64,000 nucleotides of DNA from Antedon mediterranea. Lineage: Eukaryota; Animalia; Echinodermata. The DNA is taken from NCBI RefSeq assembly GCF_964355755.1, contig NC_092677.1, positions 15,336,101 through 15,400,100 on the forward strand. Reading direction: 5' to 3'. This document shows, in pieces, positions 9,401 to 45,400 of this stretch. Position 1 is the first letter of the stretch; every line of letters begins with the position of its first letter. The translations under genes and the position numbers were made by a program. The notes under the pieces are model-generated. The model had not been told where the DNA came from. It ran no database searches and saw only the letters and a list, made by a program, of their open reading frames with translations.

Positions 9401-12400
9401 ATAACATTTGTGCTGCTATTGAATTTGATTTCAGTTACTACTCCTTGTACTACAAACCCATGTCAGAATGGTGGAGCATGTACTGTGGTTGGTTCTTCAT
9501 ATTCGTGTACATGTGCTAGTGGATATACAGGAACAAACTGTGAAGTCAGTAAGTAACTTAAGCTATGTTTACACTATCAAACTGGTTTGAAAAAAGTGAT
9601 GTACCCAACTATGGTAGTAATCAACCCAACTATGCTTGTGATATGACATCATCATGTCCATATATGGGTGCATCACATTTTTTTGTCACATTGATTTGAT
9701 AGTTTAATCAGAGCTTTAAACTCTCAACGTATCCCATGATGTAGAGTAGGCCCACAGTATGCATACCCTGTGACTGGGGCAGGACAAACGCCATGTAATT
9801 AATATTACAATTATAGGCTAATTTGATTGATACAAAAATGAAAATAAGATATTCTTACAACAGCCAAATTACAAGCTGCGATGCATTTGCTTTTTACTGT
9901 AATGGAAATCAAAACAACTTTTTTGTTTCTAATTTATGTCAGAATACATGTGGAGGTAAATATCTAAATTAATTCCAATCAGTCAACCTCAACTATATAT
10001 ATGAACCTTTATTTTACTCGACTAAATACTATTTCGCTAACCATTGAAGGTTTTTTATAATTTGTATTACATCTATTTTGAGTGAATATTTAAGGATTTG
10101 GTACGTTAAGTGAAAACGATAAACTGATTCATTATGTTTTATGAAAAACATATTATCTTGGAATGAGTCCATTGTTGGACGTACTCCTTTTTAAGATGGT
10201 CTGTGCCAACCATTTGACGTCAGGTGTTGACGTCCTAAAGACTATGTTGGTACTTTTTAAGTGCACATAGATAAGTCTGTTTCTTTTTACCTTGTTTCTT
10301 TTTACCTTGTTTCGCATAAAAATTTTATTTTCCACTTTTCACTTTCATTTATTTGGCATCTCAATACATAACATTAAAAATACATCAATAATATATATAA
10401 TCACCTTAAATATTAAAATACATCAAAAAAGCAAATAAAAATGGCGGTATTAATGAGGTCTGACGATGCACGGGAAAACACATAAAGTCGTTTAAATTAA
10501 AACAACTTAATTCCAATGTGGTCCCTAAAAAGATAGTAATTATAATTTTAACAAAACAAACACTATAAGACGGGGTTCATAAATATATAAGCATATAAGC
10601 AAAACATCTGATATTATGGCACAATAATAATTTATCTATGTTTAATTTTGTAATATTGTTTCAATTCAGTTTTAAATTTCAATGTGTTGGAAATTTGTTT
10701 AATATAGTCAGGAAGGTTATTCCATTGTATATATTGAATGTATTGCATTCTATGCCTTGGACATTAGGTACAACGAAATTGAGTTTACTACCACGAGTGA
10801 AGTGACCATGTAAGTTATTAACTCTATGAAAGTTTTCGTTTAGGTATGAAGCACTTCTGCCTATAAATATCTTATGAACTTGGCTAATTTGCAAGAACTT
10901 TACTCGGTATTTTACATTTAACAATCCATAATCGTCTAATTGATCAGCACCTATATGTCTTCTGGGTTCAACTCCTTTTATGAGTCTAACCATTTTGTTT
11001 TGAGCAATTTGTAGTTTTCTTTGGATAGCTTTACTGGTTCCACAGAACCAAGAAGATGCACCATAATCAAAAACACATTGGATGAGAGCAGAGCATAATA
11101 GTTTACGATTCTTTCAACTTAGTATCTTACGTTGGCGGTACATAAACTTAAGCCTATTATTTATTTTCTTAATGATTTTACATGCATATTCTGAACACGT
11201 TAAATTTTGATCTATTTCAATACCCAGATACTTGACACAATTACTAGTGTTGTAGGCGGAACATAACCGACTTCCTAGACTTTTGTACAGTTGGTAGATG
11301 ATGTATGATGAACCATCATATAAACACCTTATTTTCAATGTTTCCAGGTTTCTCTTAAATATATTTATCCGGCTCACGATGACTATCAAACATATTTACA
11401 GGTTGCGCTTCTGCCGATTAAAACATGCTATAGTTTTCACTAAATAAAAATACAGTTGGTTTATCAATCATAACATATTTAATAATACAACACCATTTTT
11501 CAATAGGAATGATGAGTTTGAAAAACAAACATTTGCTATATTATTTTATTTTCAGTAAATGTCTGCTCACCAAACCCATGCTTCAACAGTGGAGTTTGTA
11601 ACGTTGCTGGTTCAACATATACCTGTACCTGTCAAGGTTGCTTTGGAGGAACCAACTGCCAAACAGGTTGGTTTGTTTTTAACATTATATACAGTAATCT
11701 TAAAAAGAAAGAAAATCAGAATCACTTTGGGAATTCATACAGAACTTTTTAATATATTTTGTTTTATGTAGAAAAAATGTATATTTATCTTAGTTCGGTA
11801 TCGTCCTAGTATAAACGGGCCATAGTAGTAGCAGGAGTTGAAATGATAAATTAAATGTTAATCTGCAATTTATTTGACTGTTTTCTGATATATTTGTTCA
11901 TTGTATTGTTTAAACAAGGAGGTTGAAAACATGATTTTAAGAGTAAATTGTATTTATATGCATTTCATTTCAGCTGCTGATGGCTGTTCTAACAGTCCTT
12001 GTCAGAATGGAGGTGTTTGTACTGCTGTTGCTGGTTCCTGCACTGCTTACACATGTTCCTGCCCAGCATGTTTTTCTGGAACATCCTGTGAAATAGGTAT
12101 GATAAAAAACATTGACGAAACATGGTTTTACTATAAAGTTGTCTTTATTATATTTTAGCTTTGACTGTTTTTTTAGCTGTTAATAATAGGTAATTTTACA
12201 GTTTCTTGCTTTTTCTGACAGACAGAGTAGTATGTAGTGGTAGTATGACTCAGAATTGTTTAAATATATCCTGAAATTGGTGTTTAGGATATGGTATTAA
12301 GATATATTGTTAATAACAAATGGTCGAAAGCCCACAAGTAGAGACCATTAATAGACGATACTGGATTTTATTTCCCCAAAATCCTGATCAGAGGTATAGA

Positions 12401-42400: not shown

Positions 42401-45400
42401 TTAATGGAACATTCTGTCTAAAGGGTTGTCAATTTACGTTATCAATACAAAATTTATACTGTATAGAAGAAACTGCAAATATGTAAAATGAATACCTCTC
42501 AAAATAATATAGTAGAATATTCCAGACGAACGAATTAATAAATGATAAATTTATAATTATTTTAGGTGTAAATGCTTGTGATAACAACTTATGTCAGAAT
42601 GGAGCTCCATGTGTAGCCGTTACTGGTTCATGCACATTCTATCAATGTTCATGTCCTGCATGTTACTCCGGACAGTACTGTGAAACATGTAAATACCTCT
42701 AAATAAGGCTCGCCATATAAAATATCTTTCGATTTGATATTTTATTTTGCATCATATATATGATAAGAAACAAGATAAAATGCAACAATATAAATTGATG
42801 AAAAAGAGCATACATAAGACAGACTAACGAACAACACACGATACTGTGATATAGTATAACCTAATAAATAGTTGTATATGTATTGTTTTTTTAACAAAGG
42901 GATATTATTATTTTTATACAGTTACGCCTGGTGGGTGCAACGTCAATCAATGCCAGAATGGTGGTATTTGCACCGCAGTGTCATCAACATGCACATCGTT
43001 TACCTGCACATGTCTTTCAGGTTTCACAGGAGCTTTCTGCGAAACTTGTAAGTATTAAATGCATACATTCCCTCTACCTTCAATATATCCCTTTTTGACG
43101 GTAGTATTCAGGTGATAAGTTTGTGTCTTACATTTTTGTTATTCAGATAAGCTGTGTAATATTCTTAGATAAATTTCAAAAATAATTGTATTTATTCTAA
43201 TTAAAATATACAGACCTAGATTTTTTTTAAATATTTTATAATAGGGAGCTTTCGCAGGAGCATGTAAACATTAAATTTAACCGCGATGACGTCAACATTC
43301 CACTCATTTGCATAACATCGTAGGCTAGGTTCAGTCAACAGTTGCGCAACGTACTTGTTATTTTTATTTCGTTTAGACGGGAAGTGTAGAAGGCAATGCA
43401 TGTGTCGCACACGCAACATATGCCGCTTGTACCTTTGCCTGTATTAAAATAAATCATGGAATACCCTGGGCCTAAATACTAGGCCTAGCAGGGCTTGCAT
43501 ATTGGGTGATAGGATATTGCGATGAACAATTCTTATGGTTTAGCTTAATTAAAAATATCACTTCACAATTTTTTCCAGCAACTACAACAGCATGTTCATC
43601 TTTCCCTTGTCTAAATGGTGGAGCTTGTTCAATCACTTCCACCAATGGATACTTCTGTACTTGCGCATCTGGTTACACAGGAACACGATGTGAAACCGGT
43701 AAGTTATGAGTACACAATTAGGTATACTCTTTGATTACAGGATGTGACGACAAAGAATGAATAATAGTTGGATTTTTTGACTTTTTGAAGCCATGTTACT
43801 TACTTCGAATTTCTAGTGTTCAAATATGTTATAAGGTACTTTACTTATGTCATGTTATCTATTTTATCAACTATTCCTTAGTTTCATCAGCCGTTTTACA
43901 TTGTTATGTTTGTCTTTTCTCTGTCTTGTACATCCCTTTTCATTTTTCTTCCAACATTTTCCAGCAACAACAGCATGTTCATCTTTCCCTTGTCTAAATG
44001 GTGGAGCTTGTTCAATCACTTCCACCAATGGATACTTCTGTACTTGCGCATCTGGTTACACAGGAACACGATGTGAAACCGGTAAGTTATGAGTACACAA
44101 TTAGGTATACTCTTTGATTACAGGATGTGACGACAAAGAATGAATAATAGTTGGAATTTTTTGACTTTTTGAAGCCATGTTACTTACTTCGAATTTCTAG
44201 TGTTCAAATATGTTATAAGGTACTTTACTTATGTCATGTTATCTATTTTATCAACTATTCCTTAGTTTCATCAGCCGTTTTACATTGTTATGTTTGTCTT
44301 TTCTCTGTCTTGTACATCCCTTTTCATTTTTCTTCCAACATTTTCCAGCAACAACAGCATGTTCATCTTTCCCTTGTCTAAATGGTGGAGCTTGTTCAAT
44401 CACTTCCACCAATGGATACTTCTGTACTTGCGCATCTGGTTACACAGGAACACGATGTGAAACCGGTAAGTTATGAGTACACAATTAGGTATACTCTTTG
44501 ATTACAGGATGTGACGACAAAGAATGAATAATAGTTGGATTTTTTTGACTTTTTGAAGCCATATTACTTACTTAGAATTTCTAGTGTTCAAATATGTTAT
44601 AAGGTACTTTACTTATGTCATGTTATCTATTTTATCAACTATTCCTTAGTTTCATCAGCCGTTTTACATTGTTATGCTTGTCTTTTCTCTGTCTTGTACA
44701 TCCCTTTTCATTTTTCTTCCAACATTTTCCAGCAACAACAGCATGTTCATCTTTCCCTTGTCTAAATGGTGGCGCTTGTTCAATTACTAACACCAATGGA
44801 TACTTCTGTACGTGCGCATCTGGTTACACAGGAACACGATGTGAAACCGGTAAGTTTACTAATGAACACTTTCTGTAGGAATAGGACTACTCTTTGATTA
44901 CAGAATTTTACAACAAAAACTTAACAATTTGTAGTAGTCAAAATATGTTACTTTTGTCATGTTATCTATTTTATCATCTATTCCAAAGTTTCATAAGCTG
45001 TTTTACATTGTCATGTTTGTCTTTTATATGTCTTTTACAATTCAGTGGTTACAACAGCTGCATGTTTATCTTTCCCTTGTCTAAACAATGGAGTGTGCTC
45101 CGACACTTCAACTGGATACCTCTGTACGTGCCCATCAGGTTATACAGGAACACGATGTGAAACTGGTAAGTTATGACTACAAGATAAATCAAGGACTTTT
45201 TTTTGTTACTAAGTATAGTGACAAGATTGTCAACTGTCAACTCTCCTAATACAAACATGTTCTTCTACAGTCATCCTAAAGGTCCAACTTTTCTGAGAAT
45301 GAGAGTTTTTGAAGATACGATTATTTGGGCCATTCCAATGGTGTGTCGTTGGTAGAGCTTTGAGATTATCTTGGACATTAAATCATTTTTCTTACATCCT

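Follow-up and report, generated by a model that had tools for sequence, protein, structure and literature searches.

A 64,000-nucleotide stretch of the genome of the echinoderm Antedon mediterranea (hereafter, the window) contains a single large intron-split gene on the plus strand, with one module per phase-1 exon, and the long run of EGF modules that it encodes raises the question of how the two cysteines that each of these modules holds beyond the six of the EGF core are paired. The two, here denoted A and B, occupy fixed places in the module, and the modules that flank the run hold one each, B before it and A after it. We estimate at about 85% the probability that a fourth disulfide (hereafter, the staple) runs from B of module n to A of module n + 1, as an earlier note on this sequence had proposed. 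The parts of the gene that bear on this question are as follows:

11556-11666, plus strand: first cap, a seven-cysteine EGF that has B but not A and whose major hairpin is short
11974-42688, plus strand: array of 52 phase-1 exons, one eight-cysteine EGF each (2216 amino acids including the caps)
18966-19085, plus strand: complete eight-cysteine unit that lacks an acceptor AG and is likely dead
38189-40442, plus strand: three complete eight-cysteine units without a donor GT (38189, 39723 and 40321) amid intact exons
41176-41291, plus strand: decayed copy that retains A and B but lacks C6 and a donor; the transcript join 41041>41701 passes over it
42922-43047, plus strand: last cap, a seven-cysteine EGF with A only and a glycine at the B position

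Between the caps, the pattern scan gave 57 matches, that is, 56 complete eight-cysteine units and the unit at 41176 that lacks C6. AG and GT sites in phase 1 flank 52 units, all with exactly eight cysteines and with no stray cysteine among the 1669 other residues of these exons, which bears out the count of 52 eight-cysteine EGFs given in the earlier note; four units with a missing splice site (AG near 18966, GT at 38189, 39723 and 40321) and array fragments near 14476, 18518 and 42266 had gone unmentioned there. Both caps are as had been described, and the claim that the remaining EGFs have no extra cysteine pair holds as well, given that the full EGF exons outside the array and caps (n = 20) encode six cysteines each; one truncated module (52558-52632) has four.

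The array modules retain the six core cysteines in EGF spacing, with C4-x-C5 and an 8-residue C5-C6 loop. Cysteine A is located in the C3-C4 turn, with the spacing C3-x6-A in 51 of the 52 modules and A-x4-C4 in all 52, and B precedes a phenylalanine or tyrosine in the C5-C6 loop, with the spacing C5-x2-B (B = C5+3) in 51/52; the aromatic residue follows B directly in 52/52 and stands at C5+4 in 51/52. In some modules, the C5-B spacing is widened to 3, 4 or 6 residues. The linker between C6 and the next C1 consists of 6-7 residues and is cysteine-free in all 52 exons. The cysteine codons vary synonymously (47 TGT and 5 TGC for A, 20 TGT and 32 TGC for B). Pfam family PF00008 matches both caps above the cut-off and 22 of 25 eight-cysteine members at E <= 1 (best 9.4e-05), one member matching no family at E <= 0.01; neither Laminin_EGF nor an integrin EGF family is among the matches of the 25 members at E <= 1. 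The EOGT O-GlcNAc consensus has Gly, Pro or Ser at the position equivalent to B; the Ser or Thr two residues after B is mostly kept in the array, and the array (11974-42688) holds a single N-glycan sequon.

In tandem EGFs, the aromatic residue at C5+4 packs on the major turn of the next domain, a geometry invoked by the earlier note that is in print (PMC4826273). B is the residue just before this packing aromatic, and A lies within the major turn.

Coupling of B to the following A

Homologs were collected with a 25-exon profile searched in two libraries and a five-module profile searched twice more; the best 120-150 matches per search make up a set of 424 proteins, to which all homolog counts refer. 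Among the 5343 adjacent module pairs in these proteins, the module after a B-bearing module is A-bearing in 128 of 129 cases. The sole B-to-plain pair, in snake Notch4, has a different spacing and was dismissed. Junctions from a plain module to an A-bearing one number 9, of which four represent the odd cysteine of the Notch1 type; all 9 (for example, the Notch1-type seven-cysteine module) were dismissed as unrelated odd cysteines. A looser B motif has 167 matches, spread over 37 of 422 proteins; next comes an A-bearing EGF in 137, a plain EGF in 1, the end of the record in 4 and something else in 25, such that an EGF directly after a B cysteine has A in 137/138 cases. Five B-motif matches in the C1-C3 region were dismissed as false.

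A B-to-A junction occurs once or more in 30 records. In these, the state of B in module n and that of A in module n + 1 disagree in none of the 291 adjacent pairs; in the reverse order (A of n against B of n + 1), 68 of the 291 pairs disagree, and just one of A and B is present in 60 of the 378 modules. Shuffling the module order (n = 5000) gave a mean of 95 mismatches and a minimum of 72, against the 0 observed. From these counts we infer the bond that the earlier note had drawn between B(n) and A(n+1). Record P0133, which duplicates the array of P0002, was excluded from the 30-record count, and P0237 and P0238 were excluded from this and the looser-motif count.

Parsed runs are closed by B and A in 19 of 34 cases; on inspection, the remaining 15 are mostly parser breaks or record ends. 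Closed runs hold 0, 1, 2, 3, 4 or 6 eight-cysteine modules in homologs and 52 in the window. B appears to be gained or lost together with its neighbour: in Anneissia P0056, the B cap has 73-79% identity with the window exons 5306, 6161, 8578 and 9435, none of which contains B or is followed by an A-bearing module, and in Amphiura P0105 and P0163, a Thr or Tyr occupies the place of A in the first module. The run lengths, the B-A pairs of Seison (see below) and these changes in the Anneissia B cap and at the Amphiura A position provide the more independent support.

Transcripts, homologs and predicted fold

Both caps are present in transcripts because contigs of run X1 join each cap to its neighbours; the earlier note had named the absence of the cap exons from transcripts as evidence that would count against it, and these joins show both spliced in. 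X1 was taken as RNA, which it is not recorded to be, solely from the GT..AG joins of its contigs, and the contig comparison to the window covered the sequence outside 17150-40800. Among the joins listed, all GT..AG, those in the 5' part are 9548>11556, 11666>11974 and 12096>14556, and those in the 3' part are 41041>41701, 42234>42566, 42688>42922, 42234>42922 and 43047>43579; none is among the joins listed for runs X2 and X3. The shorter sides of the X1 joins are only 25-124 letters, so that some could stem from look-alike exons. The end of a six-cysteine exon (9548, or its copy at 6274) is spliced to 11556. A 399-base X1 contig consists of 11556-11666, 11974-12096 and 14556-14681, with a single mismatch, so that exons 12560 and 13788 are skipped; one or more isoforms or alleles are without two array exons. 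The staple count varies with the isoform: the 53 proposed originally stand if all 52 exons are used, but not for the product of this contig.

Carriers of the module were found in all five echinoderm classes, namely, the crinoid Anneissia, the sea stars Asterias and Patiria, the brittle star Amphiura, the sea urchins Lytechinus and Diadema, and the sea cucumbers Holothuria and Apostichopus, and in the three hemichordate genera Ptychodera, Glandiceps and Saccoglossus. Bare B-then-A pairs amid plain EGFs were detected in Seison nebaliae, which is a distant protostome, and in two further records. This taxonomic range is a lower bound because the five-module profile searches were crowded by ordinary long EGF proteins; among 186 new proteins, they added only P0345 (from Glandiceps) and P0378 as clear carriers. 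A search of the ESM Atlas returned generic EGF clusters only.

In homologs, the usual form is a B cap, four eight-cysteine modules and an A cap (B-8888-A), followed by four characteristic EGFs, in hyalin-like proteins (records including XP_041472953.1, XP_038068280.1 and XP_033626662.1). The capping asymmetry that the earlier note proposed to look for is borne by the echinoderm and hemichordate records, which are mostly ordered B-8(n)-A. The window exons 42922, 43579, 47790, 48343 and 49342 best match the A cap and the first to fourth following positions of this cassette, in order; many other window exons, the B cap included, did not best match their own class. The closest proteins among the matches are those of the crinoid Anneissia japonica, which share Kunitz, EGF, stub and furin-site modules with the window at up to 79% identity and point to a crinoid as the likely source; Kunitz domains lie upstream in Anneissia P0046 and P0056, too. 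Judging by these matches, the window array is the B-8888-A cassette of hyalin-like proteins, expanded approximately 13-fold by exon duplication, and hence a lineage expansion of a widespread cassette and not a one-off. The array blocks 16914-18500 and 37270-41092 are 83-96% alike, and by its sequence the array grew via tandem duplication of exon plus intron. Across echinoderms and hemichordates, the records that carry the eight-cysteine module are labeled hyalin, mucin-like or fibropellin-like; the module itself is unannotated in them, and no Pfam family matched here marks it.

An AlphaFold2 model of the B-888-A block of Anneissia (20 sequences) has a predicted local distance difference test score (pLDDT) of 89 and a predicted template modeling score (pTM) of 0.53. 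The EGF fold, with its major and minor beta sheets, is predicted to be kept in this homolog, with A (residue 61) placed by the model in the turn between strands 53-56 and 64-67. The model superimposes on Drosophila Notch EGF11-13 at 2.6 Å over 124 columns and on five-module Notch fragments at 6 to 12 Å, and Foldseek matches it to Notch1 EGF20-24 with E 3.9e-18.

Read from their sequence, the array modules lack the calcium-binding EGF signature D/N-x-D/N-E/Q before C1: the pair [DN][EQD] precedes C1 in 0/52 of them, alanine being at that place in 44/52. Among homologs, the pair is found at 5 of the 128 stapled junctions vs 2304 of the 5215 other junctions.

Alternative pairings and the proposed role

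Several other readings of the two cysteines have to be considered. The bond could be interdomain with reshuffled partners, for example, with C5-B closed as CxxC within the module and C6 bound to the next A, which predicts the same parity and the same B-then-A order and is compatible with the coupling counts; C5-x-x-B is a CxxC in 51/52 modules, and an integrin module-boundary cysteine bonds into the following EGF (PMC12383024). Such a scheme would, however, break the canonical C5-C6 bond although the 8-residue loop, the aromatic and the glycine are retained, the C5-B gap is 3, 4 or 6 residues in some modules, and the predicted model retains the ordinary EGF fold; we consider it highly unlikely. 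The EGF modules of teneurins with odd cysteines form interchain bonds, a precedent for A and B bonding between chains and cross-linking adjacent rods into bundles or a mesh. Cysteine-rich, many-EGF echinoderm adhesive proteins have been proposed to form meshworks (PMC9382459), and the exceptions to parity listed below could be interchain sites; yet interchain use gives no reason for B to come directly before A in one chain, even in bare B-A pairs (P0093 and P0156), and appears equally improbable.

A bond between A and B of one module, with the caps keeping free thiols or bonding other molecules, would suit the even number of eight cysteines, the known four-disulfide EGFs, which are usually described with intramodule bonds (PMC12383024), and the three Amphiura records that begin with an eight-cysteine module. 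Against this pairing, which we hold to be a shade less probable again, stand the 60/378 modules with one of the two cysteines alone, the bare B-A pairs that contain no eight-cysteine module, and geometry: A and B would lie at opposite ends of a module, given the packing described in PMC4826273, in which the major turn points back to the preceding domain and the C5-C6 loop on to the following one. That the order merely descends from a single ancestral cassette, without any structural meaning, is favored by the many homolog blocks that are likely orthologs. We give it next to no credence, considering that both A and B are kept in 52/52 intact exons despite the synonymous codon variation, that the order recurs at differing array lengths and in the distant protostome Seison, and that B is gained or lost together with its neighbour.

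Several points weigh against the staple between B(n) and A(n+1). The 30 records were selected because each contains a B-to-A junction, irregular modules are passed over by the parser, and the junctions counted are not independent of one another, given that the B-8888-A blocks are probably orthologs for the most part. The earlier note had held that homologous arrays starting and ending with eight-cysteine modules would speak against it: three Amphiura records (P0187, P0203 and P0215) do start in this manner, with an eight-cysteine module after a HYR domain of 4-5 cysteines, whereas elsewhere the order is mostly B-8(n)-A. A lone A module with no preceding B is present in Anneissia P0046 and P0056 and in P0093; a nine-cysteine module in P0011 has a plain EGF next; and a stretch other than an EGF comes after B in P0029, P0163, P0193, P0277 (twice) and P0316, and 13 times in P0205. 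These exceptions to parity are found in predicted gene models, some marked partial. The inter-module angles of the Anneissia model are uncertain because pTM is 0.53, and the calcium test reads two positions against a background rich in Notch-type proteins. The straightness of the rod is not assured because non-calcium EGF junctions can be bent and rigid (PMC4826273).

Some of these records show peculiarities of their own. In P0205, from Solemya velum, the 13 EGFs with a B-type cysteine have nine cysteines, and each precedes a seven-cysteine ephrin-receptor-like repeat, possibly another interdomain staple. The lone A module of Anneissia P0046 and P0056 comes after a furin-type site, and the stub before this site in P0046 ends in two adjacent cysteines that could tether the cleaved parts.

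If B(n) does bond to A(n+1), the three ordinary EGF bonds (1-3, 2-4 and 5-6) would, from the spacing and the fold, be retained alongside the staple, which would sit where one EGF meets the next head to tail, the interface stiffened by calcium in Notch and fibrillin, and, because of this location, would stiffen the rod without calcium. Tandem EGFs measure approximately 2.5-3 nm per module, and a near-straight rod locked without calcium would be about 135-160 nm long. No free thiol would be left, since A is not required in the first module, nor B in the last, and duplication, loss or skipping of exons would keep the parity because each eight-cysteine exon, all being in the same phase, brings one A and one B. 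Such parity-neutral exons would explain how four modules became 52, with splicing setting the length. The staple would be either very old or reinvented because bare B-A pairs exist also in a distant protostome. The weakest steps are that cleavage at the furin-type site would free the rod to join a surface coat or a layer of matrix, and that the freed rod would be a spacer with Kunitz domains at its far end. Hyalin is an extraembryonic matrix protein. EGF-repeat proteins are present in sea star adhesive (PMC9382459). Nothing ties the array gene to the hyalin-type matrix or to the adhesive. Taken as a whole, the proposal of a third class of four-disulfide EGFs, in which a self-propagating staple, old or reinvented, replaces calcium and gives a rod of about 150 nm with its length set by exon skipping, strikes us as slightly better than an even bet.

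Few extracellular modules have been studied as much as EGF repeats, and two four-disulfide types of them are recognised, those of laminin and of integrin. Because these types have extra bonds, a fourth disulfide at an EGF junction is a known idea. In integrin I-EGF, a module with eight cysteines as well, a fourth disulfide lies at a junction of tandem EGFs, as we infer for the array, and one of its partners is in the major hairpin, as A is. The I-EGF bonds are 1-5, 2-4, 3-6 and 7-8, with one bridge spanning the EGF1-EGF2 hinge (PMC12383024). The integrin partner is, however, the first cysteine of the module, at the boundary, whereas here it is inside the previous C5-C6 loop; the array has no cysteine ahead of the EGF core (cysteine-free linkers, 52/52) and no match to the Pfam family. 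Laminin LE modules likewise are eight-cysteine EGF-like repeats in long extracellular rods, but their extra bond is C-terminal to the EGF core (PMC2725086), whereas the array has no cysteine after C6 and no Laminin_EGF match. The distinction from both types drawn in the earlier note thus stands, the extra cysteines being placed differently and neither Pfam family being matched.

With the calcium-binding EGF rods of Notch and fibrillin, the array shares the module fold, a six-residue linker and the packing aromatic at C5+4, and the best sequence and fold matches are Notch and Delta-like 1; unlike these rods, it is devoid of the calcium signature (52/52) and has two extra interface cysteines instead, and the Notch and Delta-like 1 alignments examined hold no A/B pair. 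The echinoderm hyalin-like and mucin-like HYR-EGF membrane proteins have the B-8(n)-A cassette, a feature defined here from their records, with its four EGFs in order, and they resemble the window gene in the furin-type site, the last EGF, the transmembrane helix and the end of the tail; they differ in that no HYR domain was found in the window, Kunitz domains lie upstream of the array, and the eight-cysteine modules number 52 vs about 4. No description of this cysteine placement or of a capped chain was found in the literature searched, in which subscription papers were poorly covered. We regard it as a real, conserved and apparently undescribed EGF subtype.

If true, a fourth bond from module to module would be a new, calcium-free way to set the stiffness of EGF rods, and grafting the two cysteines into Notch or fibrillin junctions could directly probe the importance of junction flexibility. 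The cap rule is a sequence signature that would predict interdomain bonds and flag broken gene models, and the two-cysteine design offers a natural template for locking a chosen EGF-EGF junction.

The rest of the gene and its surroundings

The product of the array gene is predicted to be a single-pass membrane protein with 54 consecutive EGF modules in its outer part. Its other exons are the following:

3324-3431, 5306-5422, 6161-6274, 8578-8694 and 9435-9548, plus strand: five upstream six-cysteine EGF exons
3988-4167, 5772-5945 and 9044-9217, plus strand: Kunitz exons, Pfam Kunitz_BPTI for 2 of the 3
43579-52632, plus strand: fourteen six-cysteine EGF exons and one truncated four-cysteine module (52558-52632)
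54427-54471, plus strand: exon with a tetrabasic furin-type site; similar sites are present in Anneissia P0056 and Apostichopus P0038
54578-54715, plus strand: last EGF exon
55303-55497, plus strand: terminal exon with a predicted transmembrane helix (55371-55427; mean hydropathy 2.7 over 19 residues) and a short tail

The end of the tail is similar to the tail ends of the hyalin-like homologs. Neither the 5' end of the gene nor a signal-peptide exon for it was found within the window; tblastn with six HYR-containing stretches gave EGF matches only, with no HYR domain in the window, and the 5' end may lie outside it.

The G+C content of the window is 26-40% in 2-kb bins. A 3-kb block is duplicated at 96% identity (5169-8186 and 8451-11434), which copies EGF and Kunitz exons as well as a partial Kunitz (6570 and 9844); the duplication also holds a minus-strand frame that resembles a retroelement fragment but has no Pfam match. 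The array is interrupted by a 4.9-kb intron (28635-33518) that is richer in G+C and has internal direct repeats; blastn detected no inverted repeat in it. Downstream, plain EGF exons with their introns form near-identical tandems at 43584-44856 and 49198-50340 (periods 384 and 436, 97-98%), which reflect either recent duplication or an assembly effect. Beyond the gene, a 683-residue open frame at 56978-59026 (plus strand; Pfam RVT_1, E 3.8e-32) likely belongs to a non-long-terminal-repeat retrotransposon, and a 215-residue frame with a zf-RVT domain at 62206-62850 (plus strand) is likely the end of another retroelement. Between them, at 60903-60969 (plus strand), a start of 22 codons that includes a hydrophobic stretch and runs into a GT donor resembles the signal-peptide exon of the next gene.

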